Positions 37,470-60,564 of a stretch of DNA of 64,000 nt are shown here, in pieces. Numbering within the stretch: the first letter of the stretch is position 1; each line of letters starts with the position of its first letter. The notes beneath the pieces were generated by a model. It did no database searches. It was not told the origin of the DNA and saw only the letters and a program-made list of their open reading frames with translations. The stretch comes from a virus (Duplodnaviria > Heunggongvirae > Uroviricota > Caudoviricetes): positions 14,318-78,317 of the IMG/VR virus record IMGVR_UViG_3300011339_000564; one strand, written 5' to 3'. A program made the translations under genes and the position numbers.

Positions 37470-37667
37470 ATGAACAAAAAAATTACAGAACTATGGGAAC
37501 AGGCCGCTCAACGAGATGACTTACTAGACGAAAAACGGTATGAGCATTTTGCTGAATTATTAATTAGAGATTGTGCAAAACAAGTTAATCATCTGGCTAA
37601 ACAAGGTGGCGGAACTTGGGGCGAAGTCATTCTAGAAAACTACAATATAAGTGTATATAAAAAATGA
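37470..37667 (+). CDS. member of the small 'FAELIVREC' paralog family (65 aa)
   Basis: HFAELLIRDCAKQV is shared with six other small ORFs in the window. Confidence 0.45.
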   Translation: MNKKITELWEQAAQRDDLLDEKRYEHFAELLIRDCAKQVNHLAKQGGGTWGEVILENYNISVYKK

Positions 37668-38512
37668 GTCATTTAAAAGTATCAGAATTATTTTACAGTA
37701 TCCAGGGAGAAGGTCGCTATATGGGAGTGCCAAGTATTTTCCTAAGAACATATGGATGCAATTTTACATGCGGTGGCTTCGGTATGCCTAAGGGAGAAAT
37801 GAGTAATGAGAGAGATGTTATCGCAATTAAAGCAGAAGATTATACAGATTATAAATCCTTACCACTTGTCAGTACTGGATGTGATAGTTACGCATCTTGG
37901 GACCCTCGCTTTAAACATCTTAGTCCTGTTATCTCTACCGATTCTATTGCTGACAGTATTATGGATATACTTCCTCACAAGCGTTGGATGGATGAACATC
38001 TTGTTATTACAGGTGGTGAACCTTTGCTTGGATGGCAAAGAGCGTATCCAGACTTACTTTCAAACGAGAAAATGAGAGCATTGAAAGAGATTACATTTGA
38101 AACTAATGGCACACAAGAACTAAGTAAAGACCTTACTAACTATCTTCATCAATGGAAGATCAGCCGTGAAAATAACGCACTTACATTCAGTGTGAGTCCT
38201 AAACTTAGTATCAGCGGTGAGAAGTGGGAAGAAGCAATATGTCCACAAGTTGTTCGTCAATATGAAAGTGTTGGCTTTGTATATCTTAAATTTGTTATTG
38301 CTACTAAAGAAGATGCGATTGAGGCAGATAAAGCAGTTAAAGAATTTCGTACAGCTGGATTCAGAGGTCCAATATACTTCATGCCATGCGGTGGTGTAGA
38401 AAGTATCTATAATTTAAATGCTAGAAATGTTGCTATTGAAGCAATGAATCGTGGCTATCGCTATAGTGATAGATTACAGGTGCCTCTATTTAAAAATGAA
38501 TGGGGGACATAA
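37664..38512 (+). CDS. queE: QueE-like 7-carboxy-7-deazaguanine synthase (radical SAM) with atypical cysteine spacing
   Basis: YSIQGEGRYMGVPSIFLRTYGCNFTC matches the QueE N-terminus (QGEG...GCNxxC). The third cluster Cys is displaced by a long insertion. Confidence 0.65.
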   Translation: MSHLKVSELFYSIQGEGRYMGVPSIFLRTYGCNFTCGGFGMPKGEMSNERDVIAIKAEDYTDYKSLPLVSTGCDSYASWDPRFKHLSPVISTDSIADSIMDILPHKRWMDEHLVITGGEPLLGWQRAYPDLLSNEKMRALKEITFETNGTQELSKDLTNYLHQWKISRENNALTFSVSPKLSISGEKWEEAICPQVVRQYESVGFVYLKFVIATKEDAIEADKAVKEFRTAGFRGPIYFMPCGGVESIYNLNARNVAIEAMNRGYRYSDRLQVPLFKNEWGT

Positions 38513-38715
38513 TGACAGAAACAAAAAAACGCACAGTGGTAAGGATGCTTACCTATAGATTGACAGCATGGTTATTCACAATCTTTTGGACTTATCTGTT
38601 TACAGGTAATCTAGGTAACTCAGCCGGCTTTGCTACTGCATTACATATATTATTAAGTATAGACTATTACATTCACGAACGCATTTGGTTGAGAATCAAA
38701 TGGGGTAAGGAATAA
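38500..38715 (+). CDS. small membrane protein (71 aa)
   Basis: Two hydrophobic helices. Confidence 0.4.
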   Translation: MGDIMTETKKRTVVRMLTYRLTAWLFTIFWTYLFTGNLGNSAGFATALHILLSIDYYIHERIWLRIKWGKE

Positions 38716-38716
38716 T

Positions 38717-38941
38717 ATGCCATTAGATCAAGTCCAATCATATGATTACTTTTATGACAAATTGATAGGTACTGAACTTAAGTTTACTTGGCTACCCCAA
38801 ACTTGTGACATATCAGGTAAGCGTATTTGGTTAAAGTATGGGTATAGGATGACTAGGATGATTACTGGACCGGGCACACCTGTCTTTGAGTATAGATGGC
38901 ACGATAAGAATACCCATATTATATGGAAACTAAAAAGGTGA
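38717..38941 (+). CDS. hypothetical protein (74 aa)
   Basis: ORF. Confidence 0.4.
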   Translation: MPLDQVQSYDYFYDKLIGTELKFTWLPQTCDISGKRIWLKYGYRMTRMITGPGTPVFEYRWHDKNTHIIWKLKR

Positions 38942-38945
38942 ATAT

Positions 38946-39125
38946 ATGTATGAATTAAGATATCTTGTCCGAAACGGTTGGGATGGACCTGAACAAGTGT
39001 TACAATATAGAACTCAACATGAAGTAACAGACTATAGTGGCACAGATCCTAAAACAGGTGGATTCATTAGAAAAATAGAATGGACTGAATGGAAGTATGT
39101 CCCCACCGTAGATGAAACAAAATGA
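38946..39125 (+). CDS. hypothetical small protein (59 aa; below the ORF-track threshold)
   Basis: ORF with an ATGA overlap to the next gene (39122). Confidence 0.35.
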   Translation: MYELRYLVRNGWDGPEQVLQYRTQHEVTDYSGTDPKTGGFIRKIEWTEWKYVPTVDETK

Positions 39126-41299: not shown

Positions 41300-41773
41300 T
41301 TATAGACCAATCTTGGGTGGATACATTGGGCCAGACTTTATTCGTTCACCACCGTCAAAGTAACTAATTTCTACTGGTAATTCTTTCCAGCCTAATCTAT
41401 GTGCAGCCATGATACGATGATTACCTTCGTTTACCCAGGCACTGCCATCATAGGCCACATTGATAAAAGGTTTGTATTCTTCACTAGAGTGTGAATGTAA
41501 TGGTAGCTTGCCGGTGTCCTTCATTATTTTCATAATTGCAATAAGATCACCTTGACGCACATTTTGTTGTTCGTTTCGCATACCGGGTATTTGTCTTAGT
41601 AAGTTAACAGGAATTTCAACTTTTCTGACAGTAGCAGTTGTCTTTCCCATGTAGGGCAAACCATTACGATCAGGACTTTTTTGCTTGGCATACGCAATAG
41701 CATCGTTTAGCCATTCCTCATTAGGCACATCAACACTAAGTGTTCCTTCAGTTATAAATTCTTTTGCTCTCAC
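41300..41773 (-). CDS. hypothetical protein (157 aa)
   Basis: ORF on the minus strand. Its stop abuts the plus-strand epimerase stop within 1 nt. Confidence 0.5.
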   Translation of the reverse strand: MRAKEFITEGTLSVDVPNEEWLNDAIAYAKQKSPDRNGLPYMGKTTATVRKVEIPVNLLRQIPGMRNEQQNVRQGDLIAIMKIMKDTGKLPLHSHSSEEYKPFINVAYDGSAWVNEGNHRIMAAHRLGWKELPVEISYFDGGERIKSGPMYPPKIGL

Positions 41774-42444
41774 ATTGATCCTTTAGAATTAACAAACCAG
41801 GGGTCAACTATAACTAATTCTCCATTACTACGTTGCATGACATTTTCGGTGTGCAAGTCCCAACCAAATTTGTTTATTCTACCCGATTGATATAATAGTT
41901 TCATTACACTAAACAAGGTAGCATACGTCTTATAAAAAGTAACACCTTGCTGTGTCATTGCATTATCTATAAGTTTAGCCATTTTAGATGATATTGGGCT
42001 AGAGAAGAATTTCCAAGTTTCAGGATCAGTTAGTGAAGGTAAGATTTGTTGCCAAGTCTCACCTGTAACAGCATAGTCACTTAATATCCAGACCATTGCT
42101 TCTTCAACACTGTTCTTTTTAATAGGCTGAAGATGTTCCATGTCAATTTGTATGTAATCCTCACCGGCAATATCGATTGTATTCATTTCATTAAATATAG
42201 GTAAACAAGAAATCTCAGGATGATTTTCACAGAATTCGTAAAACTTTTTAAATACTTTTTCAGCGTGACCACTAGGATCATCTGGCATTAATATTTTAAT
42301 CACATGACTAGTATCTTTAGCCCATACTCTTGCATCAGCTCCGCTACCAATATGTTTGTAACCTAGTGATTTTAAATGCGCGGCAATTTCTTTGAAGGCT
42401 GGTCCTGTTGCAGCCTCATCTACTGCAAATTCATTGGCTCTCAT
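41770..42444 (-). CDS. hypothetical protein (224 aa)
   Basis: ORF. Confidence 0.5.
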   Translation of the reverse strand: MRANEFAVDEAATGPAFKEIAAHLKSLGYKHIGSGADARVWAKDTSHVIKILMPDDPSGHAEKVFKKFYEFCENHPEISCLPIFNEMNTIDIAGEDYIQIDMEHLQPIKKNSVEEAMVWILSDYAVTGETWQQILPSLTDPETWKFFSSPISSKMAKLIDNAMTQQGVTFYKTYATLFSVMKLLYQSGRINKFGWDLHTENVMQRSNGELVIVDPWFVNSKGSM

Positions 42445-42623
42445 TTCTTGCGACCCCTAAACCCTACTGGCATCTGCAAATCATTAACGGGAAACATTGC
42501 TTTGAACCACTCATCAGTACCAGGCTTAGCAGTAATTTTGCTACGGTCTATAGGCACAGAAGATGTAGGTTTTCCTCTATGGTCGGTAACTCCTGCAAGT
42601 CTTTTAAGTTGATCTATGTTCAT
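42441..42623 (-). CDS. hypothetical small protein (60 aa)
   Basis: ORF that fills the gap, with overlaps on both ends. Confidence 0.35.
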   Translation of the reverse strand: MNIDQLKRLAGVTDHRGKPTSSVPIDRSKITAKPGTDEWFKAMFPVNDLQMPVGFRGRKK

Positions 42624-43174
42624 AGACTCTTACCCCAGCGTGTGTTAATCACATTCCAGTTGATAATCTTCCACTGTTCAGCCAAATACTTTTTCTTATC
42701 AGCACCGTAGTCTAATATCCACGCATGTTCCCACCAATCAACTAATAACAATATATCATTGCGTACTTCATGGTTCTTAATTGTTTTAATTTTACCATCA
42801 GTTGCTAAATATACCCACCCACTACCTTGTATCTTCATTGCTTCAGTTTCAAACTGTGACTTCATATTATCGTATGAGCCAAAATGTTTGTTAATAAAGC
42901 CCATCATGGGGCCGTTTGGATTGTTTTTATTTCTTACTTCACGGAACTGAGGGAACAATGTATTATGTAAGAATGCACCTGCATAGTTAAATTCTTTATC
43001 TCCGATATCTTTGTTATATCTTTCAGCATAGCCATGTGCTAACTTGCCATAGTGTAAGTCTATAGTGTCTACCGACAAAACCGGACTTAGTTCTTTTGGC
43101 TCAAAATTAAGCTGAATGATTTCTATATCTTGAGGTTTTGACTTATCCTCAAGTAACTGAATTAAATCACGCAT
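42620..43174 (-). CDS. sodA: Fe/Mn superoxide dismutase
   Basis: N-terminal LHYGKLAHGYAERYNK matches H..KHH..YV. C-terminal VDWWEHAWILDY matches the SOD signature DxWEHAYY. Confidence 0.8.
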   Translation of the reverse strand: MRDLIQLLEDKSKPQDIEIIQLNFEPKELSPVLSVDTIDLHYGKLAHGYAERYNKDIGDKEFNYAGAFLHNTLFPQFREVRNKNNPNGPMMGFINKHFGSYDNMKSQFETEAMKIQGSGWVYLATDGKIKTIKNHEVRNDILLLVDWWEHAWILDYGADKKKYLAEQWKIINWNVINTRWGKSL

Positions 43175-44955
43175 CAGTGTTTCAATAATAATGTAGAAAT
43201 GATGTTAGGATCGTTAGCACTGATATCACCTTCACCGGGTGCAACGATAACATTGTACTTCATACCGGCTGGTATTGATTTACGTTTAGCCATGTACTGA
43301 TTATAGTCTAATATAGAGTTGGCACTTAATCCATACTCTTTTGCAAGACGATTCTTTAGTTCAGGTAACTTATCAGGTTGTACTTGCCATTGGCCTTCTG
43401 ACCCCTTAACTAAGTTTTTCTTTTCGTCCTTAACTAATAAATCTTGGAACAAGTCATCTGGAACAATACGACTATTCTTAGTTTTATCTAAGTTAGCATC
43501 ACTTGCCTTAACTTGTTTCTCTTGTGATGTATGAGCACCTTCACTCCAATTGATAATAAAGTTAGGTGGCTTCTGACCTAATGCGGCACCAGCCATCTTT
43601 GTGTAAGCATAGAACTTAGTATCAGGATGCTTTGCAGCCATCTTTAATGCCAAGTCTAAATATTCTGGGCTGAAGAAGTCACCAGCATCATGCCAACGAA
43701 TAGTAGTTTGCCAACCTTTAGGGAATTTCTTATCACCCTTTTGACCAGCTTGTTCTTCTTTGCTAATCTCACTACTTAATTGATTGAAGAACCCGTCTGG
43801 ATCATTCAATAGATATGTTAATATTCTTCCGTCACTTTGCCATGCGTTCTTAAACTGAATTTTTCCGCCCTTCATAGCAAAACAATCTATTTTACATGAG
43901 CCTGCGCCCGGGCATGTATTAACAATGATTAGTTTATTTGTTTGTTCGTCTAGTGCAATACCAGTCAATGCCGCAAAGCCAACGTTGAAGAATTGTTCAA
44001 ACTCTCCGTTACTATGCTTCATCTTTTCGTTTTGCTTTAGTAATGATTTAGGGCGTTGTGACAATGTTTTCTTAACTGCATCCTCATCATATGTTGCACC
44101 ATCTGGACCTAAGTATTCAACTACACTACTACGGTGGATATAAGGCATTTTGTATCTATCTGTTTTTGTTTTACCAGATACATATTTTTCATTACCCTTT
44201 TTATCTACCTTAACATTACCTGCTTTGTCTGTATCAGGAGTACCAACAATACGTTTCATGTAATCTTGGAACTCATCGCCACCAAACTCACGGCTACTTG
44301 CTGGCAGTTTAGTTGCTTCTTCTAAGCCAGATAGTTTGCGAATTCTATCTAAGCCTTCCGCCACACCTTCATTTGCACTTTGACTAGCCAATTTATAAAT
44401 ATACGCAGTACCGTTGGGTAATAGATACGTAGTATAATTTCCTATACCCCTCTCACCCATTTGAGCCTGTTGAATTGTTATCATTTTTGCGCCGCGCGGC
44501 GTTGGGCCATCATTAGGTACCAGCATACCTTTATATTCTTTGCCTCCATGGTGCACAACTATACCAGTGTCGCTTCGTTCTACTTTTTCTGCTGTATCAA
44601 CATTTTGATTTGGCATCTGACCACCAGATTTTTCTGCACTGGCTTGAAATCCTTGTTGAGCCATTTGTTGTGCGGCACTAGGTGACATTTGGCCATCAGC
44701 ACCAAGACTAACTCTTGCGTGTGCAGAGCCAGCTGACCCTAACGCACCCATTGCACCTAATGCCATTGCACCTGTTGCGGCTGCTTTTTTCCAATTAATT
44801 TCGTCAAGTTGCTCTTCCGTCATACCTTCTTCTGATTCTTCATCGGGCATATCACCCGCTTTAGTAACGAATTGCTGAGGTGTCATAATTTGGATGCCAC
44901 TAGGTGCTCCAGGCATTTTTGGCTCTACGCCTTCGAATAGTTCTTTGAAATTCAT
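43174..44955 (-). CDS. large hypothetical protein (593 aa) with a Gly/Ala-rich N-terminal region and a GVAEG motif; candidate packaged virion protein
   Basis: NEGVAEGLDRI at about aa 200. AATGAMALGAMGALGSAGSA block. Confidence 0.55.
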   Translation of the reverse strand: MNFKELFEGVEPKMPGAPSGIQIMTPQQFVTKAGDMPDEESEEGMTEEQLDEINWKKAAATGAMALGAMGALGSAGSAHARVSLGADGQMSPSAAQQMAQQGFQASAEKSGGQMPNQNVDTAEKVERSDTGIVVHHGGKEYKGMLVPNDGPTPRGAKMITIQQAQMGERGIGNYTTYLLPNGTAYIYKLASQSANEGVAEGLDRIRKLSGLEEATKLPASSREFGGDEFQDYMKRIVGTPDTDKAGNVKVDKKGNEKYVSGKTKTDRYKMPYIHRSSVVEYLGPDGATYDEDAVKKTLSQRPKSLLKQNEKMKHSNGEFEQFFNVGFAALTGIALDEQTNKLIIVNTCPGAGSCKIDCFAMKGGKIQFKNAWQSDGRILTYLLNDPDGFFNQLSSEISKEEQAGQKGDKKFPKGWQTTIRWHDAGDFFSPEYLDLALKMAAKHPDTKFYAYTKMAGAALGQKPPNFIINWSEGAHTSQEKQVKASDANLDKTKNSRIVPDDLFQDLLVKDEKKNLVKGSEGQWQVQPDKLPELKNRLAKEYGLSANSILDYNQYMAKRKSIPAGMKYNVIVAPGEGDISANDPNIISTLLLKH

Positions 44956-45644
44956 TTCTTGTGGTTCCTAATAAATTGTTCTGCTAGCATTACTAATTCT
45001 TGCATTTGCTCAATAGATTCACAATGCCATCTACGTAAACTCTTATTAATATTGCTGTTTGGATCACGTGCTGTTTTAGCACTTGTACGATGTTTCTTCA
45101 TACCGCGCATTCTAGCGCAAAAACTAGCACGGCGCTTTGCGTCCTTGCTACCCTTTTTAATCTTGCTTGGCTTTTTAGTAACTGCTGTTTGAATCTTGCT
45201 ACCAGGATGACTACGGCGATAACTACTTACAGATTTTTTACTCATCCCACCTACACGTTTGTTATTGTGCTTTGACCAATTCTCGCCTTCCGCCACACCT
45301 TGACTTAATAATTTTTTAACAGATATTGGACCTGATTGATTTTCTGCACCGGTTAAAAATTCATTTCCCCATGGGGTTATCCAACCATCAAATTCAATAT
45401 CATTGCCTTGAACCATAATATCATTATTACCATCAAGGTTTTGATATCCATTCAACTCTTTGTACCATTTTCTTAATGATTGTAACTTGTATGGACCTTT
45501 GTAGCCTTGTTTTTTCAAAATAGAAATAATTTCCGGAGTAAATCCAACTGGTTGACCCTCAGATACTTTCTCTTTTTTGCTAATAGCAATAGCGGCTTGT
45601 TGTGCTGGATTTGCGGCTTCTGTTAAAATTTCTGTTATTCTCAT
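44952..45644 (-). CDS. hypothetical protein (230 aa). A GVAEG motif is followed by a highly basic C-terminal half. Internal-protein-like.
   Basis: SQGVAEGENW, then a Lys/Arg-rich tail (KKPSKIKKGSKDAKRRASF...KKHRTSAKTARD). Confidence 0.55.
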   Translation of the reverse strand: MRITEILTEAANPAQQAAIAISKKEKVSEGQPVGFTPEIISILKKQGYKGPYKLQSLRKWYKELNGYQNLDGNNDIMVQGNDIEFDGWITPWGNEFLTGAENQSGPISVKKLLSQGVAEGENWSKHNNKRVGGMSKKSVSSYRRSHPGSKIQTAVTKKPSKIKKGSKDAKRRASFCARMRGMKKHRTSAKTARDPNSNINKSLRRWHCESIEQMQELVMLAEQFIRNHKK

Positions 45645-50619: not shown

Positions 50620-50641
50620 TGGAACATTGGAGTATTGAAGA

Positions 50642-50869: not shown

Positions 50870-50870
50870 T

Positions 50871-52784: not shown

Positions 52785-53169
52785 TAGCAAATCAAATAAG
52801 CAACGTATCACTGAGGCTGTACTTAAACAGTTGCCGCCCACAGATCAACCTATAGATAAAATAATTAACGAATGGTGGTTCACTAGATCCAGTGAGGGAC
52901 TACGATTATCTGCCATTGGTGATTTAAGTTTTCGTCACGCACAAATAGAATTCTTTAATCTCCCATTAAAAATTACTCAGGACAATTGGCATAAGTTTAT
53001 AGTTGATTGTAGTAAGAAGATTAAATGTCCATATTACTTTGGTGTCAATAAAAATGAATTAAAAGAAAAAGAGGCATACATAAGATTGTATGACAGTAAA
53101 ATTGCTATGATGATACAATTATATGGGGATATACACAGTTATTTAGAATCAGTAAAGGCAAGAAAATGA
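52777..53169 (+). CDS. hypothetical protein (130 aa from the ATG at 52777)
   Basis: ORF; 8-nt overlap with the upstream stop. Confidence 0.4.
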   Translation: MSDSKSNKQRITEAVLKQLPPTDQPIDKIINEWWFTRSSEGLRLSAIGDLSFRHAQIEFFNLPLKITQDNWHKFIVDCSKKIKCPYYFGVNKNELKEKEAYIRLYDSKIAMMIQLYGDIHSYLESVKARK

Positions 53170-53333
53170 CAGAAGAAAAGAAAAGTAAAAATCCGTTTAT
53201 TAATTTAGCTAATGCCGCTAAGAAAGATAGTAAGCATCCTGGATTAGGTAAAGCTCCTAAATCACAAGGACCTAAACCAACTAAGGGTAACGGTGGTGCA
53301 ACGGTTGTTCGTAGAAGCGGTCGCGGTGGTTAA
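53166..53333 (+). CDS. small basic Gly/Lys-rich protein (55 aa); speculative
   Basis: ATGA overlap with the previous gene. Confidence 0.3.
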   Translation: MTEEKKSKNPFINLANAAKKDSKHPGLGKAPKSQGPKPTKGNGGATVVRRSGRGG

Positions 53334-53818
53334 TACCATCTACCTTCATTACGCATACGTTTAATGAGAGTTAGATAAGTGCTACATACACCATAGCATT
53401 TTAATTGCACAGTACTAAACAAACTACGGTCATCTATTTCGGGAAGAAAGATAATACTAGTATTGTTTATAGCAACAGTACCCGGAGTGATTAGTTTCCC
53501 ACTACTTGTAGTAACTGGGGTACTCTCAGTAGCATCGGGAAACCAAAAGTAATTAGGATATAATTTACTCGGTTGAGTAGTTAACCAAGTTTGCATGTCT
53601 GTATTTCTAGCGTTGATCCAAAAACGTACACCTTGTAGATATTTTTCGGTCACTTCAGTAGTTGGTTCAAAACTACCCAAATATAGTTTTCCATCTACTC
53701 TCCAAACATCTACCATGCAGGAATATCCGGCGTTGAATGCTTTTCCTATTTGTGCTGGGGTATTAGCATCTTCAAAATTTTGGCTATCAAAGATACCCTG
53801 GTAAGATATATATAACAT
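53330..53818 (-). CDS. hypothetical protein (162 aa) on the minus strand
   Basis: ORF. Confidence 0.4.
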   Translation of the reverse strand: MLYISYQGIFDSQNFEDANTPAQIGKAFNAGYSCMVDVWRVDGKLYLGSFEPTTEVTEKYLQGVRFWINARNTDMQTWLTTQPSKLYPNYFWFPDATESTPVTTSSGKLITPGTVAINNTSIIFLPEIDDRSLFSTVQLKCYGVCSTYLTLIKRMRNEGRWY

Positions 53819-53916
53819 AATATGTATTTATGTCAACGGAATACATAGCTGCCGCGTTATATATATGTAGACACAAAAAATGTTGTTCTACTTTCATTAA
53901 CATAAAGGAAATCAAA

Positions 53917-54237
53917 ATGAAACAACTTATCGCTCTATTTGCCGCTGTTGCAGTTGGCACCGCTTTTGCTCAAGCTCCTGCTAAAAAGGAAGAAGCCAAG
54001 CCAGCCGCGGCTGCTCCTGCTAAAAAGGAAGAAGCCAAGCCAGCCGCGGCTGCTCCTGCTCCAGCTAAAGCAACAGCGCCGGCTGCACCTGCTAAAGCAG
54101 AAGCACCAAAAGAAGAAATGAAATTAGCTAAGAAGAAAGAAGACAAAAAAGCTGATGCCACTAAAAGTGAAGCAAAGCCTGCTAGTCCAGCGCCAGCAAA
54201 AGCTGACGATAAAAAAGCCGAAGCTCCTAAGAAGTAA
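53917..54237 (+). CDS. secreted Ala/Pro/Lys-rich repeat protein (106 aa from the ATG at 53917)
   Basis: AAGGAAA SD before the ATG at 53917. Signal peptide MKQLIALFAAVAVGTAFAQA. Tandem KKEEAKPAAAAPA repeats. Confidence 0.55.
   Translation: MKQLIALFAAVAVGTAFAQAPAKKEEAKPAAAAPAKKEEAKPAAAAPAPAKATAPAAPAKAEAPKEEMKLAKKKEDKKADATKSEAKPASPAPAKADDKKAEAPKK
53975..54052 (+). repeat. 39-bp perfect tandem direct repeat x2 (gctcctgctaaaaaggaagaagccaagccagccgcggct) inside the secreted repeat-protein gene
   Basis: Identical 39-mers at 53975-54013 and 54014-54052. A partial third copy may follow. Confidence 0.8.
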
Positions 54238-54520
54238 TCCATATAGGCTCACTGCAATTAGAATCTGGGGTTTCGATCCCAATAAGGTTCTAGTTGATGA
54301 TGAGGATATATTAGTTAATTCCCGTCGTATCATATTAAAGATTAAAACTTCTTTAGATAATGATGTGGAATTAACTGATTATGTCAAGTTAAGATTGTTT
54401 CTGGCCAGAGAAATGGCTATGTCAAAATATAGAGAAATCTATCAGACGGCATAAATATACATGAAGTTATGAGTTCTTCATAAAAACTCAATTTTTAAAC
54501 ACACACATAGGAGATATAAA

Positions 54521-54796
54521 ATGTTTAACACAGCAACTTACGCCTTTATTGACGGCGTTTCAGACTTCAAAAAGAAATTCGTAGAACAAACAGTTCAACA
54601 CGATGGCATCAAAACAGCATTAAACGGTTTTGTTGATGCACAATCAAAATACACAAAAGCAGCCGCAGATGCAGGAATGCAATCTATGATGGCTATGGGT
54701 ATGATTTTTAGTAGCAAAGAATTCTACACACAATTAGCTGACCAGTATAAAGCAATGGTTCCTGCTTTCAACGCTAAAAAAGCTAAGGCTAAGTAA
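54521..54796 (+). CDS. hypothetical protein (91 aa)
   Basis: SD TAGGAGAT lies upstream. Confidence 0.5.
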   Translation: MFNTATYAFIDGVSDFKKKFVEQTVQHDGIKTALNGFVDAQSKYTKAAADAGMQSMMAMGMIFSSKEFYTQLADQYKAMVPAFNAKKAKAK

Positions 54797-54798
54797 TT

Positions 54799-54963
54799 AT
54801 GAAACTTTTAGGAATGCTAATAGCGTTCCTAGGTTTCTCTACAGACACCTACGGAACTGAGTTGGAAAAATATATAGTCGGCCGAAATCCACAAGATGTA
54901 GGTGACATTGAACGATTAACATACGAGTTCCATCGCAAACAATCTGATTGGAGATTTCTATGA
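54799..54963 (+). CDS. tiny ORF (54 aa), first of a chain of three ATGA-coupled micro-ORFs (54799-54963, 54960-55043, 55039-55140)
   Basis: Serial ATGA overlaps; no other ORFs fill 54797-55169. Confidence 0.3.
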   Translation: MKLLGMLIAFLGFSTDTYGTELEKYIVGRNPQDVGDIERLTYEFHRKQSDWRFL

Positions 54964-55169
54964 ACACACTTAAACAACTTTTTAACAGCCTACTAGAGGC
55001 AATACAATCTATCAAAGACTACAAAGCGAGTAAAATGAAATGAATCAATGGCAACCTATGACTGACGAAGATTGGGAATGGGTTAATCATGGTACATTAC
55101 CAAAACCGGTTGACATCCCAGTCAAAACAAACTATAATTAACACACATACACTTTTTTAAGGAAATAAA

Positions 55170-55445
55170 ATGACAGACTTTACACCAAAATTGCCAGAAG
55201 TTAAATTTAACAAAAATGGCTACGAACTACGTACAGATATTTTAGCTATGGCTAAAGATGTTGTTCAACAAGAATATCAAATGAAATTTCAAGGTTGGGA
55301 ACTAACAGCAAAACGTGATGAGAAAACAGGTCAACTAGTAACAACAGTTGGTATGCCTGAGTTTCCAGGTCTAGATAAGGTCCTTGAAACTGCTGAAAAA
55401 ATGTACGGCTTTGTAAATCAAGGTCAAACACAATCTAAGAAGTAA
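55170..55445 (+). CDS. hypothetical protein (91 aa)
   Basis: SD AAGGAAAT lies upstream. Confidence 0.5.
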   Translation: MTDFTPKLPEVKFNKNGYELRTDILAMAKDVVQQEYQMKFQGWELTAKRDEKTGQLVTTVGMPEFPGLDKVLETAEKMYGFVNQGQTQSKK

Positions 55446-55456
55446 TTCTTAACATG

Positions 55457-55479
55457 AAGGCTCTTTGTGAGCCTTCCTT
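55457..55479 (+). terminator. hairpin terminator (GAAGGCTC tttgt GAGCCTTC)
   Basis: Perfect 8-bp inverted repeat directly after the stop at 55445, followed by a T-rich tract. Confidence 0.55.
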
Positions 55480-55498
55480 TACGGCTATAAATAATTTT

Positions 55499-56122
55499 AT
55501 GAAATATCATATTTTAGGAAGACCGGGCGGAAGCAGACCACTAGTATCAACTATTTTTAATATGATGGGATACAATTCGTATTACGGCTCTTTAGATAAA
55601 CCCAATGACAATGATACAGCAATATTAATAACATATCAATACGATATGTTCGCATGGGTAATGACCTCTAGATACGTTGAAGATATATTATACAATTATA
55701 ATTTAGGTAATAAAGAAAACTTTAATCATTGGCTTACTCACTATGTGGGTCCAGGCACACCGTCAACCCCAGATGATATCAGCATGAGTGATTGGGCGGC
55801 GCACGTAGTGAACAGTTATAAACACATAGGAATGTTTGCTCCTTTAAACGGTATCTATGAAGATTTAGAATTATATTGTAAAGATTCAAAATGTATGCGA
55901 CACGAATTGCCGTTAGAATTAATTGTAGATAGTCCAAATCAGGCTATAATTAGGATAGAAGAAATTACAGAAAAAGTTATGGATCAACAAATTAAGAATT
56001 TTTTCTTAAAAGAAGTTGAGAAACAAAAAATATTACTTTCTCCATGGATGGATGATTACTATAAAGCAAAAGAAAAATCCACAGACAGTTATCTGTGGCT
56101 TAAAAAGCAATCCTCAATTTGA
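55499..56122 (+). CDS. hypothetical protein (207 aa from the ATG after the hairpin)
   Basis: The track ORF 55454 would run through the hairpin, so the internal ATG 55499 is preferred. Confidence 0.45.
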   Translation: MKYHILGRPGGSRPLVSTIFNMMGYNSYYGSLDKPNDNDTAILITYQYDMFAWVMTSRYVEDILYNYNLGNKENFNHWLTHYVGPGTPSTPDDISMSDWAAHVVNSYKHIGMFAPLNGIYEDLELYCKDSKCMRHELPLELIVDSPNQAIIRIEEITEKVMDQQIKNFFLKEVEKQKILLSPWMDDYYKAKEKSTDSYLWLKKQSSI

Positions 56123-56153
56123 CATAAATTCCAAATAGTGTTACAATAAGGGT

Positions 56154-57455
56154 ATGAAAAAATTTATACTCATACTATCTATTGTTCTATCCGGTTGTGG
56201 GGGCGGTGGTGGCACCAGTACTGGCGATAGTTCGCAGGCAGTATCAGTAAAATCAACGTGTACCCTTGCTGTAAATTCAAATACAGTTCCACAATCATAT
56301 TATGGCACTAATTCAATACCCACACCATTATCAAAATTTGATAATACTATTCTAAGAGGTATTGGTCTTAAAGATTATCATCCTAGATTTAATCTGGCAA
56401 ATACAAATTGCACTCAAGATGAACATTCCAGATTACTATATCAAAAAACACTAGACAGATTAAAACTATTAAACGTAGATTATGTTGAAGTATATCAATA
56501 TGGCCCGGTAGTTGATTTTAATGCTACTACTTGGGTAGTAGATAAATCTACATGGCAAATACCAGAAAGTGAATTGATCTGGTTTATTAAAGAGGCTAAT
56601 AGTAGAAACATTAAAGTAAATATTATTTGGCAATTATGGCCAACTGATAGTAAAGGTAATACTATAAATTCAAGTTATGATATGTCAGAAGCGGAAATGT
56701 TAAAAGTATTGCGGGGATGGCATAATATTATTGTAGATTTAGCTAAGTTTGGTGGTAGTAATGGTTTGAATATATTAACCGTACATTGGAATGCATTTCA
56801 TTTTCCAGTAACTAACAAATATAAAGAATCTGCCACCTTAGAATTTTTATCAATCATTAATGATGTGCGACAACATTTTAATGGTAAATTATTTATGGGA
56901 GCATCGCCTGTATTTTTTGATAAGAGAATTGTTGAAAAGGTCGATGGTATTATTATTCCATTAACTCCTAGTAATTGGTCTAGAAATGATGATATTAATA
57001 TATCTGTCAGTTTGTTAAAAAGCCGATATTTAGATAATATATTAGGAAAAGCATTAGAACTTTCTATGGCTACTGGATTAGATTTAAAAAGTATTCCGGT
57101 TATCTGGGATTTTAATATTCAGAGCAGAGATAAAGCATTGAGTGAAGGTTGGGTAGAAGATGGATTTTGTATTAAAGAAGGTGGCGATGGTGCCCCTGTA
57201 AGTTGGGGTAATCCTGAATGTGCCAAACAAATGAATTATATAACCGATTTTAGTATTCAAGCATTAGCTATTGAAGGTGCATTTCAGGCTATTAAAGAAC
57301 AAACATTAATTAAAACATATGGTATTAACTTTAGTACTAGTTATTGGCATACTGATACGTTAGTACCCGGGCAAGAAGGCTTTCCCAACTTGTCGCAATC
57401 TATTCGAGGAAAACCTGCTGAGAATGTAGTCAAACATTGGTTCTCCAAAAATTGA
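56154..57455 (+). CDS. lipoprotein (433 aa), function unknown
   Basis: Signal peptide plus the lipobox LSGC, followed by a poly-Gly linker (CGGGGGTSTGDSS). Confidence 0.6.
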   Translation: MKKFILILSIVLSGCGGGGGTSTGDSSQAVSVKSTCTLAVNSNTVPQSYYGTNSIPTPLSKFDNTILRGIGLKDYHPRFNLANTNCTQDEHSRLLYQKTLDRLKLLNVDYVEVYQYGPVVDFNATTWVVDKSTWQIPESELIWFIKEANSRNIKVNIIWQLWPTDSKGNTINSSYDMSEAEMLKVLRGWHNIIVDLAKFGGSNGLNILTVHWNAFHFPVTNKYKESATLEFLSIINDVRQHFNGKLFMGASPVFFDKRIVEKVDGIIIPLTPSNWSRNDDINISVSLLKSRYLDNILGKALELSMATGLDLKSIPVIWDFNIQSRDKALSEGWVEDGFCIKEGGDGAPVSWGNPECAKQMNYITDFSIQALAIEGAFQAIKEQTLIKTYGINFSTSYWHTDTLVPGQEGFPNLSQSIRGKPAENVVKHWFSKN

Positions 57456-57480
57456 CAATAAATGGGTATTGTGCTATAAT
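57452..57480 (+). promoter_or_regulatory. sigma70 consensus promoter TTGACA-17-TATAAT
   Basis: Exact hexamers. The shared flanks (ttgacaataaat...gggtaTATAAT) recur at 57789 and 58112. Confidence 0.6.
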
Positions 57481-57512
57481 AGAATCTTAAACAGTAAAGA
57501 AAAGGAAACGAA

Positions 57513-57785
57513 ATGTCAGCACTCACAGAATACACATTGGAAATTTACAAAACTGACAAGCGTACCAAAGAAGGTAAGCGTTTGGTTTCAAAGCAAGATT
57601 TTGCACCAGTAACAGTAGACTACATTAATGCCGTTGCAGACGGTAAGCGTAGGTTGGGTTTTGTTGTTGAAGTGTTCGAAACCTTTGTTACCCGCAAAAA
57701 CTTGATGGCAGGTAAGTCATTCCAAGAACGTTATGACACCCCTTACTTTTGTTCACCAAGTTCCGAATCTTACTGGTCAATGTAA
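57513..57785 (+). CDS. hypothetical small protein (90 aa)
   Basis: SD AAAGGAAA; downstream of a consensus promoter. Confidence 0.5.
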   Translation: MSALTEYTLEIYKTDKRTKEGKRLVSKQDFAPVTVDYINAVADGKRRLGFVVEVFETFVTRKNLMAGKSFQERYDTPYFCSPSSESYWSM

Positions 57786-57788
57786 AGG

Positions 57789-57817
57789 TTGACAGTAATT
57801 GGATTTGGGTATATAAT
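57789..57817 (+). promoter_or_regulatory. sigma70 consensus promoter TTGACA-17-TATAAT
   Basis: Exact hexamers. Confidence 0.6.
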
Positions 57818-57848
57818 ACTTGTATTGACTTGATTAAAGGACTACAAA

Positions 57849-58115
57849 ATGGCTAAGAAAATCTCTATCAAAGTGTTTGCAGACCCCGGACATGCTTGGG
57901 CACGTTTTCCCAAAGCAAAATTGGTCAGTCTCGGTATTGCTGACAAAATTAGTACTTATAGTTACATGAATGGTTCCAATGCATTCTTGGAAGAGGACTG
58001 TGATTTGTCTGTATTGCTGGTTGCTCTCCGTAATCGTGGCTATGAGATTAAATTTAACGAAAGTCACACAAACCGTCAAAGCAAAATCCGCAATTATTTT
58101 ACCTACAAGGCTTGA
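57849..58115 (+). CDS. hypothetical small protein (88 aa)
   Basis: SD AAAGGA; downstream of a consensus promoter. Confidence 0.5.
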   Translation: MAKKISIKVFADPGHAWARFPKAKLVSLGIADKISTYSYMNGSNAFLEEDCDLSVLLVALRNRGYEIKFNESHTNRQSKIRNYFTYKA

Positions 58116-58140
58116 CAATAAATCACTTTGGGTATATAAT
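58112..58140 (+). promoter_or_regulatory. sigma70 consensus promoter TTGACA-17-TATAAT
   Basis: Exact hexamers overlapping the end of the previous ORF. Confidence 0.6.
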
Positions 58141-58174
58141 AGAGTCTTATTCAGTCAAACAACAGGAGTTAAAA

Positions 58175-58378
58175 ATGGGTCTCGAAAAAGACGTTCTCGC
58201 TAAGGTTGCTAGTGTTATCGGTGATGACAAATCTGCCGCGTTTGAATATGGTACTTTGTTTGTTATGTGTGAAGAAAGTCAGGCCCGTTCAGTGTTTCAC
58301 AAACTGAGCAAAGACTACGGTTTTGGTAAAGTACGTGTTTCTAAAACCCCCTTTGAATATGCTTTTGATTTTGTTTAA
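58175..58378 (+). CDS. hypothetical small protein (67 aa from the ATG at 58175)
   Basis: SD ACAGGAG before the ATG at 58175. The track start 58112 lies inside the promoter. Confidence 0.45.
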   Translation: MGLEKDVLAKVASVIGDDKSAAFEYGTLFVMCEESQARSVFHKLSKDYGFGKVRVSKTPFEYAFDFV

Positions 58379-58387
58379 GGAGTAATC

Positions 58388-59041
58388 ATGGCTCGCTATC
58401 AAAAACCCGTTCTCAATATCCCTGCTGAAAACGTCTGGGGTGCGGCATGTCAGGCACAACGCATTAACGGTGCCTATGTTAAACTGAGTGTGTTGACAGA
58501 GGCTGACAAGACAGAGAACAAATTGTCCAATCGTCAACTGGTCGAAAGTTTCATGGTTGACCCTAGCTTGATTACCGAAGAAGATATGGAGCAAGGTAAA
58601 AAAGTTCGTGCATTTTATCAGGCATTCACTTTCAAAATCTTGCAAGGCAAACGATTGAATGAATTTGACAACACCGCAATGTTGCTTGCCAATCGTGATG
58701 TTATTACTGGTAGTTATGATGTTGCGGTTATTGCTAGTTTGCCAAGTTGCTATGAGCGTGGTATGAAACGTCAAACAGCAGACCAACGTGTTAATTTTGC
58801 TAGCGGTGGATTTGTGGGTTCAGTTGGTGATAAAGTTTCAACTACTATTGAAGTATTGAAATCTGTATTCTCAATGAAATGGGGCACACACTATGTTACC
58901 GGCATCACTAGTGATGACCAAGTAGTGTTCTTTGCTTACAAAAGTGAATTACCAATTGGTAAGATATATGATATTTATGGTACTGTTAAAGCACACCGAG
59001 ATAACACTACCCAACTTAATCGTGTAAAGGTTATTGTATGA
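58388..59041 (+). CDS. hypothetical protein (217 aa)
   Basis: SD AAGGAG lies upstream. Confidence 0.5.
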   Translation: MARYQKPVLNIPAENVWGAACQAQRINGAYVKLSVLTEADKTENKLSNRQLVESFMVDPSLITEEDMEQGKKVRAFYQAFTFKILQGKRLNEFDNTAMLLANRDVITGSYDVAVIASLPSCYERGMKRQTADQRVNFASGGFVGSVGDKVSTTIEVLKSVFSMKWGTHYVTGITSDDQVVFFAYKSELPIGKIYDIYGTVKAHRDNTTQLNRVKVIV

Positions 59042-59325
59042 ACGAACGAATTCGACAACTGGCTCTACAGGCTGATGAATATGCTGAACAAACTGTTCAT
59101 TATTATATGGGTCAGTTTGATGGATTGACTTGGGAAGGCAAAATCAAACAAACAAGAGATACAAAGTTCGCCGAGTTGATTGTTAGGGAATGTATTGACA
59201 AGATTACAACTTATGATTTGGTTCCAGGTCATTCAGCCAAATGGGAAGATATCTACGATATCCATACTAGGCTGCTACAAGACTTAGGTGAAGAATTGAA
59301 AGAACATTTCGGAGTTGAAGAATGA
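59038..59325 (+). CDS. small 'FAELIVREC' family paralog
   Basis: MNERIRQLALQ...KFAELIVRECIDK...KEHFGVEE. Confidence 0.5.
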   Translation: MNERIRQLALQADEYAEQTVHYYMGQFDGLTWEGKIKQTRDTKFAELIVRECIDKITTYDLVPGHSAKWEDIYDIHTRLLQDLGEELKEHFGVEE

Positions 59326-59549
59326 ATACAGAATTGATTCAGAAATTGAAGTCACAATGTATCTTCCGTGAAATGCGTGGTACTACTGCGTTTAACAGTT
59401 ATATGGTAGATCGGTTTGATAGTGAAAAGTTTGCAGAACTGATTGTACGAGAGTGTGACCGTTATGCCCGTAGTGTATGGGAACATGGTCCATTGTTAGG
59501 TAAGGATTTGTTAATACATTTTGGAATTGAGGAGATGAGTGATGAGTAA
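59322..59549 (+). CDS. small 'FAELIVREC' family paralog
   Basis: KFAELIVRECDRY...IHFGIEE. Confidence 0.5.
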   Translation: MNTELIQKLKSQCIFREMRGTTAFNSYMVDRFDSEKFAELIVRECDRYARSVWEHGPLLGKDLLIHFGIEEMSDE

Positions 59550-59670
59550 ATTAATTATTGGTTTTATTCTTGGTATTGTTGTATCAACGGTTGGCTTTAG
59601 TGGCATCGCTAGAATGGCTGATAAAGGCGTAGACAAGGTTAAAGAAGTAACCATCGAACAAGCAAAGTGA
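59542..59670 (+). CDS. tiny single-TM peptide (42 aa); speculative
   Basis: GGAG lies 8 nt upstream. Hydrophobic LIIGFILGIVVSTVGF. Confidence 0.3.
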   Translation: MSKLIIGFILGIVVSTVGFSGIARMADKGVDKVKEVTIEQAK

Positions 59671-59699
59671 AATTTAAACGTAAACAGGTGGAGGATAAA

Positions 59700-60122
59700 A
59701 TGGGACTAGATATGTATGCTTATGTTGCCAGCAGAAAAGGTCAGTATGATGAATTCCATGAAAAGGCTGAATGGGATGAGACTATAAAAGATTTTACCTC
59801 TCCTATCAGTAAGCCATTGGAGATTGCTTATTGGCGTAAGCATCCTAACTTGCATGGTTGGATGGAACAACTATGGGAACGCAAAGGCAAACCCGGTGCA
59901 GGCCCTAAAGAAATATTCAATGGCATTGAATTGGAACTGACATGGGATGATTTGGATGAGCTTGAACGAGCTATTCTCCGTGGTCAACTCCCGGATACTC
60001 AAGGTTTCTTTTTTGGTAAACCAGCAGATAATCGTTATTATGAACAAGACCTAGAGTTTGTAGACAACGCTAAGGCGGAAGTGTTTTTGGGATTGAAAGT
60101 ATTTTACAACAGTAGTTGGTAA
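59700..60122 (+). CDS. hypothetical protein (140 aa from the ATG at 59700)
   Basis: GGAGG SD before 59700. Confidence 0.45.
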   Translation: MGLDMYAYVASRKGQYDEFHEKAEWDETIKDFTSPISKPLEIAYWRKHPNLHGWMEQLWERKGKPGAGPKEIFNGIELELTWDDLDELERAILRGQLPDTQGFFFGKPADNRYYEQDLEFVDNAKAEVFLGLKVFYNSSW

Positions 60123-60225
60123 TGTATATTACAAATAAATATCATTCAATTAAGTTGCCATATAGTGAAGATTTATTAGAATGGCTGATTGAAACATATC
60201 CTAAATCAGAATATAGAGTAGTAAA

Positions 60226-60564
60226 ATGAACGAAAATATTAAAGCAGGTGGAGACATTCACGCAGGTGATGGTGGTTACTCTATTGGCACCAAAGAAAAA
60301 TATGATGAATTTGTGAAGAATAGGAATCGTATGAACGACCGAATTCGACAACTTATAGAGCAAGCTACGGATACTATAGAAATTGTTAATCCAGATACTG
60401 GAATCACTCATTATCGTGAGTTTTTTGATAAGGAAAAATTTGCCGAGTTGATTGTGTGGGAATGTATGGAACAGGTTTGGTATAGTCGTGAAGATAGTAT
60501 CAACGGCAATGTTTCCGAAGTTATCAAAGACAGGATTAAGAAACATTTCGGAGTTGAAGAATGA
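60226..60564 (+). CDS. small 'FAELIVREC' family paralog. The true start may be the internal MNDRIRQL at 60331.
   Basis: MNDRIRQLIEQ...KFAELIVWECMEQ...KKHFGVEE. Confidence 0.45.
   Translation: MNENIKAGGDIHAGDGGYSIGTKEKYDEFVKNRNRMNDRIRQLIEQATDTIEIVNPDTGITHYREFFDKEKFAELIVWECMEQVWYSREDSINGNVSEVIKDRIKKHFGVEE

Follow-up and report, generated by a model that had tools for sequence, protein, structure and literature searches.

The gp38 tail-fibre adhesins of T2/T6-type phages contain hypervariable segments separated by conserved glycine-rich motifs that form the structural core (Trojet et al. 2011, PMC3157838); gp38 is a late virion protein encoded once per genome at the tail-fibre locus, with an N-terminal fibre-attachment domain. 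The polymorphic internal proteins of T-even phages (IPI, IPII, IPIII and variants) are small, highly basic and packaged in the capsid, and share only a targeting sequence, the 10-residue MKTYQEFIAE in T4 (PMC3012670; PMC8442874). They form a diverse anti-restriction set, with a known role for IPI*, and their diversity is attributed to an arms race with host defences. In the pilE/pilS system of Neisseria and the vls system of Borrelia, variable mini-cassettes bounded by short conserved sequences are exchanged by gene conversion between silent donor copies and one expression locus within one cell lineage. Diversity-generating retroelements produce localised hypervariability inside small conserved scaffolds, with a variable region that differs from a template repeat at adenine positions and a reverse transcriptase nearby.

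We analysed a 64-kb stretch of a Caudoviricetes genome (IMG/VR record IMGVR_UViG_3300011339_000564, positions 14,318 to 78,317; hereafter the window), in which an earlier note had described a seven-member family of small paralogous proteins. The observation is confirmed, although with six members rather than seven. All six listed ORFs, of 65–112 aa, are present at exactly the stated coordinates on the + strand. As the significance of the shared blocks had been named beforehand as the point on which the observation would stand or fall, we built leave-one-out profiles and searched 886 stop-to-stop ORFs of the window; each omitted member was recovered at E 3.6e-6 to 8.7e-14, whereas the best non-member scored E 0.07. 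Pairwise phmmer E-values ranged from 1.4e-3 to 5e-7. A broad profile built from 484 homologues again found exactly these six, with the next hit at E 0.2. The central block, described in the note as invariant, is not: it reads FAELIVREC in two members and FAELIVWEC, FTELIVQEC, FAETIVREC and FAELLIRDC in the others, with only F, E and C invariant among the six.

Member 1 (37470–37667, 65 aa) is the most divergent and was recovered with the weakest leave-one-out value (E 3.6e-6); it starts with MNKKITE, has FAELLIRDC (37548–37574) and lacks the HFGV end attributed to the family, ending instead in ENYNISVYKK. Its stop overlaps the ATG of a radical-SAM gene at 37664. Member 2 (49886–50092, 68 aa) has MNEIIKE, FTELIVQEC (49970–49996) and an EHFGVGS end, and its start overlaps the stop of a 5'-3' exonuclease gene (48891–49889). 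Member 3 (50089–50292, 67 aa) has a GTG start inside a GTGA overlap with member 2, FAETIVREC (50179–50205) and a KHFGVDNVGT end. Member 4 (59038–59325, 95 aa) has MNERIRQ, FAELIVREC (59167–59193) and a KEHFGVEE end, and its ATG overlaps the stop of a 217-aa ORF of unknown function (58388–59041), which is also next to the identical gene on an independent contig (L001). Member 5 (59322–59549, 75 aa) is ATGA-coupled to member 4 and has FAELIVREC (59430–59456) and an IHFGIEEMSDE end. In member 6 (60226–60564, 112 aa), which has FAELIVWEC (60439–60465) and a KHFGVEE end, the family domain starts at an internal MNDRIRQ (nt 60331); the 35-aa N-terminal extension begins with a partial copy of the N block (MNENIK) and is conserved in two homologues (P0115 and P0243), so it is probably translated. 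The stop of member 6 overlaps the ATG of a 131-aa ORF of unknown function (60561–60956). The note stated that members often occur in ATGA-coupled tandem pairs; there are two tandem coupled pairs, one with a GTGA overlap (49886/50089) and one with an ATGA overlap (59038/59322), and members 1, 4 and 6 are also ATGA-coupled to non-family neighbours.

To determine how widely the family is distributed, we searched sequence collections and curated databases. The family comprises at least 7,945 clusters at 90% identity and at least 5,650 at 50% identity (E<=1e-3), and was confirmed in at least 354 stretches in IMG/VR; our own profile scan found 296 hits in 81 loci, with up to 13 per 20 kb. Among 185,579 GTDB species genomes it occurred at only 13 loci, all on contigs of metagenome-assembled genomes, of which those with recognisable names (Erken, La Plata) are from lakes. 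Two tblastn queries found nothing in 50,697 GenBank phage records. No curated family matched: Pfam-A gave no hits below E 0.046, all far under the cut-offs, the best PHROGs v4 hit was at E 0.055, and PADLOC and NCBIfam gave nothing significant. A profile search of PDB gave at best E 0.031, to designed repeat proteins, Foldseek against PDB gave only E>4, and BFVD returned only unnamed 'uncultured Caudovirales phage' proteins. No homology to any known anti-defence or takeover protein was found in these searches.

Each gene consists of three blocks, N (MNERIKELAEQA), mid (KFAELIVREC) and C (KEHFGVEE followed by the stop), and two cassettes between them, V1 (about 14–30 aa) and V2 (about 18–39 aa), each of which exists as hundreds of discrete, unalignable types. 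Member 4 carries the most widespread V2 type (IDKITTYDLVPGHS...). We propose as an operational definition M-N-x-x-I-x-x-L, K-F-A-E-L-I-x-x-E-C and H-F-G-V near the stop, in a protein of about 60–115 aa (typically 65–95 aa) with three predicted helices. Five of the six window members have all three blocks, while member 1 has the N and mid blocks but a degenerate C block. AlphaFold predicts three helices for both the long member 4 (residues 3–21, 32–57 and 67–91; pLDDT 89.6) and the short member 2 (3–12, 23–44 and 53–63; pLDDT 85.8). The proteins are acidic, with median pI 4.9 and median net charge -6; 87% have pI<5.5 and 0.4% have pI>8.

The note did not describe what we consider the main feature, the independent reassortment of the two cassettes at the blocks. 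The 414 parsed members fall into 277 V1 clusters and 224 V2 clusters; 42 V1 clusters occur with at least two V2 clusters, one V2 type occurs with 68 V1 clusters, and seven four-combination squares are present. At the DNA level, 30 gene pairs share V1 (median 90% nt identity) with unrelated V2, 29 pairs share V2 (89%) with unrelated V1, and only 4 pairs share both. Shared types are 76–100% identical and recur in different genes. Most sequences come from short-read metagenome assemblies and some mosaics could be chimeric; however, 52 of these 59 shared cassettes are less than 100% identical, so they are not simple assembly chimeras. The 150 nt upstream and downstream are at noise level (about 51%) in 28/30 and 26/28 pairs; sequence similarity starts and stops at the blocks, and the flanking DNA is unrelated. 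On one 141-kb contig, three paralogues are almost identical from the ATG through the mid block, diverge exactly after ...GAATGT, and re-converge at the C block.

The blocks are also conserved at codon level, with a codon homozygosity of 0.76 (N), 0.73 (mid) and 0.89 (C), against 0.47–0.54 for the same amino acids in the cassettes of the same genes. This conservation could arise from dual constraints rather than selection for recombination, such as the Shine-Dalgarno and overlap in the C block, translation initiation in the N block, or an mRNA structure; a test for pairing between the start region and the mid block was weakly positive but confounded by GC content. The mid block is conserved as a protein through synonymous change, with 49 DNA versions encoding one peptide. 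The one cassette type tested is under purifying selection (pS 0.247, pN 0.023; pN/pS 0.09). The C block contains GGAG and an ATGA stop/start overlap, as seen where member 4 joins the start of member 5 (59296–59340, AAAGAACATTTCGGAGTTGAAGAATGAAT...), with GGAG 7 nt before the ATG; the same C-block DNA ends member 6 (60544–60564). Most family genes are translationally coupled to whatever gene follows: 147 of 177 genes (83%) end in ATGA, an ORF of at least 50 aa starts there in 131 of the 150 genes that end in ATGA or GTGA, and 59% have an upstream ORF stopping in their own ATGA.

In the window, eight perfect sigma-70-type promoter sites (TTGACA-N17-TATAAT) were found, all on the + strand, against 0.13 expected. 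One (48856–48884) heads the unit of the 5'-3' exonuclease gene and members 2 and 3. Another (58112–58140) heads the unit that runs through 58388–59041, members 4 and 5, and the 59539 and 59667 ORFs. Member 6 lies about 100 nt further on and probably belongs to this unit; no terminator-like site was found in between, and two weaker (10/12) promoter-like sites lie at 60103 and 60155. No perfect promoter lies close upstream of member 1, and early expression is inferred from promoter consensus only. The neighbours of family genes include DNA ligase, 5'-3' exonuclease, RNA ligase, RtcB, kinase and phosphatase genes, ClpP and one homologue of the anti-Thoeris protein Tad3; the neighbours scanned are replication, repair, RNA-repair or accessory genes or have no Pfam match, and no structural genes were seen among them. 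A GIY-YIG/MUG113-like ORF of 140 aa (48437–48859) lies about 1 kb upstream of the member 2/3 pair, and small GIY-YIG genes recur just upstream of family genes in 12 of 81 related loci, although any role is speculative.

In comparison with gp38, the family shares the design principle of a small phage protein with mosaic joints at conserved motifs, but there is no sequence or fold relationship. Its blocks are helical and not glycine-rich, it is multi-copy (6–13 per locus) in promoter-consensus early units among non-structural genes, and no tail-fibre gene was seen near any window member. Like the T-even internal proteins, the members are small and diverse, and their conserved N block resembles the leader of about 10 residues ending in (L/I)xE as a sequence pattern only, but they are acidic, share a complete predicted fold and two further blocks, and show no sign of late expression. 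In contrast to pilE/pilS and vls, every copy here appears to be an expressed gene, and exchange is seen across a phage metapopulation as well as within genomes. Unlike the targets of diversity-generating retroelements, the cassettes differ in length and are unalignable between types, and identical types recur in different genes; none of the 40 window ORFs or 160 locus neighbours scanned against Pfam matched a reverse transcriptase, and no template repeat was seen in a non-systematic inspection.

Based on these results, we regard the paralogy of the six ORFs, the size and phage restriction of the family, its acidity and three-helix prediction, the block-and-cassette organisation with codon-level conservation, the almost independent assortment of V1 and V2, the purifying selection on the tested type and the coupling junction as established by the analysis, whereas the evolutionary mechanism, early transcription and any function are inferred. 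In our view, the blocks act as short homology tracts for gene conversion or double crossover, which swaps half-gene cassettes within and between phages; in tandem arrays the C and N blocks join into a tract of about 60 nt that would allow unequal crossing-over and explain arrays of up to 12–13 copies. At least four of the six members would be transcribed early by host sigma-70 RNA polymerase as parts of operons, with the blocks probably building the common scaffold and the cassettes probably forming variable binding surfaces, a placement deduced from helix boundaries only. If so, each phage carries a personalised set of early binders or inhibitors aimed at variable host proteins, for defence evasion or host takeover. 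We consider this explanation somewhat more likely than not; it rests on guilt by association, as no experiment and no homology links the family to any function or target, and the nearly invariant Cys and His are not explained by a pure scaffold model. The note's interpretation is partly supported: an expanded phage small-gene family is correct and understated, but a host-takeover or anti-defence arsenal has only circumstantial support from the promoters, the small acidic proteins, the many discrete cassette types and the neighbouring genes.

Among the alternatives, each of which we consider unlikely, the strongest is that the blocks bind one conserved partner, such as host RNA polymerase or sigma factor, a protease or chaperone, or another family member in a hetero-oligomer, with the cassettes as tolerated spacers in a regulatory or structural cofactor. 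The blocks are nearly invariant across thousands of members, tandem members are coupled as is typical of subunits made in fixed ratios, and the window encodes a ClpA/B-like ATPase, with ClpP genes near arrays elsewhere. However, the strong purifying selection on the tested type and the reuse of cassette types in many combinations are not expected of neutral spacers, and six to thirteen different copies per genome are hard to explain for a single-partner cofactor. It is less likely still that the genes are largely selfish in-line cassettes, which bring their own stop overlap at the 5' end and a Shine-Dalgarno plus ATGA at the 3' end, insert between operon genes without polar effects and spread by recombination among copies, with the protein contributing little. 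The coupling counts, the strongest codon-level conservation in the C block and the recurrent GIY-YIG genes agree with this view, while the conservation of the mid block through synonymous change, the confident predicted folds and the low pN/pS argue that the protein is under selection.

Equally doubtful is a small metal-binding or redox protein that relies on the nearly invariant Cys of the mid block (349 of 361 members) and His of the C block (HFG[VI] in 298 of 361). A subset adds CxxxC (63 members) and C-x6-H (42 members), giving up to four potential ligands, and CsoR/CstR-type Cys/His helical bundles appear among weak structural hits; on the other hand, most members (204 of 361) have a single Cys from the mid block to the end, and helix boundaries in the long member place Cys52 and His90 far apart. 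Injected capsid-internal proteins analogous to T4 IPI–IPIII, with the N block removed by the prohead protease at LAE|Q, are very unlikely. The family consensus MNERIKELAE|QA has LAE at residues 8–10, like IAE in MKTYQEFIAE (PMC8442874), but this is a pattern match in sequence only and window members vary (e.g., MNEIIKELMK). The DNA polymerase of the window phage is closest to those of jumbo phages (Phosso, Atu_ph07, RaK2/K64-1) and also matches many T4-type phages. Against this reading, the proteins are acidic, share a whole predicted fold plus mid and C blocks, and lie in sigma-70-type units. No T4-type late motif TATAAATA was found within 200 nt upstream of any member, with the late-promoter consensus of this phage itself unknown, and no head genes or protease were seen among the window ORFs scanned. 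A chance or compositional artefact, or a non-coding repeat falling inside ORFs, might be suggested by the short proteins and by pairwise E-values of only about 1e-3 for member 1, but is refuted by the leave-one-out values, the thousands of homologues that keep open reading frames through hundreds of different cassettes, the synonymous variation within an invariant peptide and the confident structure models.

A more far-reaching possibility, which we consider unlikely on present evidence, is that the family is a recombination-based diversity-generating system, in which the blocks are kept identical at codon level because they are dedicated joints for swapping two specificity cassettes and for expanding arrays by unequal crossing-over, possibly stimulated by the small GIY-YIG nucleases. 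In this view, freshwater phage populations would hold and continually re-deal a combinatorial library (hundreds of V1 types by hundreds of V2 types) of early-expressed three-helix binders that neutralise variable host defence or surface-independent host factors, functionally comparable to anti-CRISPR or anti-restriction arsenals but with a built-in shuffling architecture distinct from diversity-generating retroelements.

Thousands of sequence clusters of this family exist in metagenomes, apparently mostly from lakes, with no name, domain model, structure or cultured representative, and a profile and a definition would annotate a sizeable piece of viral dark matter. If the cassettes are specificity determinants, the family would be a ready-made set of small binders or inhibitors against bacterial targets, and a compact scaffold with two exchangeable surfaces for protein engineering. 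The reassortment of half-gene cassettes at three blocks conserved to the codon, in genes that carry their own translational-coupling junction, gives an unusually clean natural example of exchange at conserved joints inside a 70-aa protein, and of how small accessory gene arrays grow.

To establish how many family members the window encodes, all 886 stop-to-stop ORFs were searched with a six-sequence profile, leave-one-out profiles, a profile built from 484 homologues, and motif regular expressions. The earlier note had described a seven-member family and listed six ORFs, all of which are present on the + strand exactly where the note placed them, at 37470-37667, 49886-50092, 50089-50292, 59038-59325, 59322-59549 and 60226-60564 (members 1 to 6), with lengths of 65 to 112 aa. 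A profile built from any five of them recovered the sixth at E 3.6e-6 to 8.7e-14, whereas the best unrelated ORF reached only E 0.07. The broader 484-homologue profile again found these six and nothing else, with the next hit at E 0.2. No seventh member was found by any of these approaches; the weak candidate at 24972-25382 scored E 0.07-17. The observation made in the note is therefore confirmed, but for six members rather than seven.

Several details of the note needed correction. The central block, described there as invariant, is not; only F, E and C are invariant among the six proteins. Member 1 lacks the HFGV end. In the 60226 ORF (member 6) the family domain starts at an internal MNDRIRQ (nt 60331), and is preceded by a 35-aa extension which begins with a partial copy of the N block and is conserved in two homologues (P0115 and P0243). 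The note stated that the genes often occur in ATGA-coupled tandem pairs; there are two tandem coupled pairs, 49886/50089 with a GTGA overlap and 59038/59322 with an ATGA overlap. In addition, members 37470, 59038 and 60226 are ATGA-coupled to non-family neighbors.

The window is densely coded, mostly on the + strand. It encodes a family B DNA polymerase whose best matches (44-49% identity) are jumbo phages, i.e., Sinorhizobium phage Phosso, Agrobacterium phage Atu_ph07 and Klebsiella phages RaK2/K64-1. Other identified genes include a 5'-3' exonuclease, a UvdE endonuclease, a DNA ligase, a glycosyltransferase and an epimerase. A 753-aa ClpA/ClpB-like double AAA+ ATPase with Clp_N and ClpB_D2-small domains is encoded at 1658-3919 (+), and ClpP genes occur next to family arrays in two related loci. 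Two radical-SAM-type proteins are encoded at 37664-38512 and 14238-15515 (+). The first is ATGA-coupled to member 1, and from its sequence it looks like a 7-carboxy-7-deazaguanine synthase, although Pfam support is weak; this would hint at DNA or nucleotide modification. The only sizeable block of genes on the minus strand, at 41300-45644, has reversed GC skew and holds an Fe/Mn superoxide dismutase (42620-43174), a 593-aa protein with a GP88 domain (43174-44955), a DUF6321 protein (44952-45644) and two ORFs with no match; it may be an inserted module. An ORF at 53830-54237 (+) encodes a signal-peptide-like start followed by a low-complexity Ala/Pro/Lys/Glu repeat (AKKEEAKPAAAAPA repeated), and is overlapped by long alternative ORFs on both strands. 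There is no close DNA relative among GenBank phages, as a megablast search with positions 48000-61000 found no match.

We examined the window for promoters. Eight perfect TTGACA-N17-TATAAT sites were detected, at 445-473, 24192-24220, 47192-47220, 48856-48884, 55110-55138, 57452-57480, 57789-57817 and 58112-58140, all on the + strand and just upstream of ORFs, against 0.13 expected in shuffles. This points to an early region read by host sigma-70 polymerase. The site at 48856 heads the unit consisting of the 5'-3' exonuclease, member 2 and member 3. The site at 58112 heads a unit that runs through a 217-aa ORF, members 4 and 5, and the 59539 and 59667 ORFs; member 6 lies about 100 nt further on with no terminator-like site in between, so it probably belongs to the same unit. 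The T4-type late motif TATAAATA is absent near all members and depleted in the window (2 found against about 6.8 expected per strand). From the promoter consensus alone we infer early transcription by the host sigma-70 polymerase for at least four, probably five, of the six members, while no perfect promoter lies close to member 1.

Outside the window, a profile of the six proteins found at least 7,945 clusters at 90% identity, and an exhaustive HMMER scan of 1.84 billion representatives found 5,650 clusters at 50% identity with E<=1e-3. None has a Pfam domain or a meaningful name. IMG/VR holds at least 354 confirmed stretches. In 81 loci (80 from IMG/VR plus one ENA contig), our profile scan found 296 hits, all on the same strand as the query match, with up to 13 in 20 kb, and one 141-kb contig has 12 copies in 12 kb. 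Among one genome for each of 185,579 bacterial and archaeal species, only 13 loci were found. All of them are contigs of metagenome-assembled genomes binned to unrelated phyla, those with recognizable names (Erken, La Plata) being from lakes, and these are probably mis-binned phage contigs. Two tblastn searches of 50,697 GenBank phage records found nothing, although tblastn would miss members that share only the short blocks. Searches of Pfam, PHROGs, NCBIfam, PADLOC and a PDB sequence profile also gave nothing, and a search of the literature for the motif strings found nothing relevant. The family is therefore phage-restricted, environmentally abundant and uncharacterized.

An alignment of 146 diverse members gives the consensus MNERIKELAEQA - variable - EKFAELIVREC - variable - IKEHFGVEE, i.e., N, mid and C blocks separated by two variable cassettes, V1 and V2. 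The nearly invariant residues are M1, N2, I5, L8, K, F, A, E, L, I, E, C, H, F, G and V. AlphaFold2 predicts three helices with high confidence both in the 95-aa member (pLDDT 89.6; helices 3-21, 32-57 and 67-91) and in the 68-aa member (pLDDT 85.8; helices 3-12, 23-44 and 53-63). In the short member the three predicted helices are essentially the three blocks plus short extensions. Based on the helix boundaries only, we infer that the N and C termini pack onto the middle of the long central helix, where the mid block lies, and that V1 and V2 form the two poles. The proteins are acidic, with a median pI of 4.9 and a net charge of -6. The mid-block Cys is present in 349 of 361 members. About 17% add a CxxxC and/or a C-x6-H pattern, but most have only this one Cys from the mid block to the end, and a zinc finger was therefore rejected as a family-wide property. 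Longer hits were inspected as possible fusion proteins that could indicate function; however, they are read-throughs, mis-called starts or tandem partial duplications, and no informative fused domain was seen. Among them, the metagenomic homologs P0121, P0122, P0135 and P0211 are single ORFs containing two mid blocks, or two whole domains in tandem, which look like products of unequal recombination at the blocks or of stop-codon loss at the ATGA junction.

Our main finding is that the two cassettes reassort independently at codon-conserved blocks, as the same V2 occurs with dozens of different V1, and the reverse. At the protein level, 414 parsed members fall into 277 V1 clusters and 224 V2 clusters, and 42 V1 clusters occur with two or more V2 clusters. 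The V2 type carried by window member 59038 occurs with 68 V1 clusters. Seven pairs of V1 types share two V2 types, so all four combinations exist. At the DNA level, among 177 distinct genes, 30 pairs share V1 (median 90% nt identity) with unrelated V2, 29 pairs share V2 (89%) with unrelated V1, and only 4 pairs share both. Of the 59 shared cassettes, 52 carry substitutions, so they are diverged recombinants rather than assembly chimeras of one population. The 150 nt upstream and downstream of such pairs are at noise level in 28/30 and 26/28 cases; the exchanged unit is therefore a half-gene bounded by the blocks.

A direct example of cassette reuse within one genome comes from a 141-kb ENA contig (GROS21-1 scaffold_92, locus L097), where ten of the locus's twelve family members lie in a 4-kb stretch (5338-9538). 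Three of these paralogs share the same N block, V1 and mid block but have three different V2. They are almost identical from the ATG through ...GAATGT, the end of the mid block, then become unalignable and re-converge at AAACATTTCGGAGTTGA. Two members share the same V2 with different V1.

The blocks are conserved beyond what the protein requires. Codon homozygosity is 0.76 for the N block, 0.73 for the mid block and 0.89 for the C block, against 0.47-0.54 for the same amino acids in the cassettes of the same genes, and the fixed codons include otherwise minor ones, such as GAG for Glu in the mid block. The peptide is also maintained through what synonymous change there is, as 49 DNA versions encode KFAELIVREC. 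When possible mRNA pairing between the start region and the mid block was evaluated, natural sequences gave 8.05 expected base pairs against 5.49 for synonymously resampled controls (p=0.014), a comparison that is confounded by GC content. Cassette types are not junk: the type in member 59038 has pS 0.247 and pN 0.023, a ratio of 0.09.

The C block DNA, CATTTCGGAGTTGAAGAATGA, contains GGAG 7 nt before an ATG that overlaps the stop. Of the 177 family genes, 147 end in ATGA. In 131 of the 150 genes that end in ATGA or GTGA, an ORF of at least 50 aa starts at that overlap, and it is a family gene in 48 cases and another gene in 83. In addition, 105 of 177 genes have an upstream ORF that stops inside their own ATGA start, and 28 of 95 consecutive family pairs overlap by exactly 4 nt. 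Each gene is thus an in-line unit that does not interrupt operon translation. In tandem arrays the C and N blocks form a contiguous conserved tract of about 60 nt, which we infer to be an obvious substrate for unequal crossing-over.

A total of 150 larger ORFs next to arrays in 78 of the IMG/VR loci were scanned. The matches were Band 7, cell-wall hydrolase, 5'-3' exonuclease, HD and metallophosphatase domains, DNA and RNA ligases, RtcB, ClpP, NUDIX, DnaB and one Tad3 anti-Thoeris homolog, while no structural proteins matched. Clustering of all neighbors within 3 kb revealed no obligate partner. The most recurrent neighbor, a small stand-alone GIY-YIG-like protein (104-140 aa, no DNA-binding domain detected), is present in only 12 of 81 loci, including L012 (9081-9419), L024 (2895-3233), L030 (9244-9732), L039 (767-1255) and eight more. 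It always lies upstream of a family gene, is ATGA-coupled to it in four loci, and its Pfam score falls just under the cut-off. The window has its own GIY-YIG/MUG113-like ORF at 48437-48859 (+), about 1 kb upstream of members 2 and 3. A link between these genes and cassette exchange is possible but speculative. The next most recurrent neighbors are an AAA_33 kinase, a dual-specificity phosphatase and a metallophosphatase. In L012, L024, L030, L046 and other loci, a recurrent trio sits inside or beside the arrays (within 3 kb), consisting of a roughly 100-aa zinc-ribbon-like protein (MKCDKCGY...), a dual-specificity-phosphatase-like protein and an AAA_33 kinase. Together with nearby RNA ligase or RtcB genes, this suggests an RNA-repair or counter-defence neighborhood.

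Taken together, the analysis demonstrates a real, huge, phage-only family with a confident three-helix prediction, two cassettes that reassort independently at three blocks conserved to the codon, purifying selection on the one cassette type tested, and pervasive translational coupling. That the blocks serve as recombination joints, that arrays grow by unequal crossing-over, that expression is early, and that the cassettes are specificity surfaces of binders or inhibitors directed at variable host factors are inferences from these data. The last of these agrees with the idea in the earlier note of a host-takeover or anti-defence arsenal, an interpretation that is plausible and only partly supported, since the evidence remains circumstantial and does not prove it.

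Other explanations remain possible. The proteins may be a cofactor or hetero-oligomer with a single partner, a largely selfish in-line cassette, or a Cys/His metal or redox protein. They may also be capsid-internal proteins with a T4-like targeting leader, an idea considered because the N-terminal resemblance is striking (MNERIKELAE against T4 MKTYQEFIAE; PMC8442874). However, this possibility was down-weighted on charge and promoter evidence, as the family is acidic where T4 internal proteins are highly basic, shares a whole fold, and shows no T4-type late promoter near the members.

The closest design analog is the gp38 adhesin of T2/T6-type phages, in which conserved glycine-rich motifs form the core and hypervariable segments between them are interchangeable specificity determinants (PMC3157838). 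The closest biological analog is the polymorphic internal-protein set of T-even phages (PMC3012670). On the features tested, the family does not qualify as a member of either, the T4-like leader being a resemblance in sequence pattern only. It is a new protein family that uses an already known evolutionary principle in an unusually compact and regular form, with multiple copies, a position in early-type transcription units and built-in coupling junctions. Its scale, its absence from the annotation resources searched, and its two-cassette shuffling architecture make it considerably more than a simple set of paralogs.
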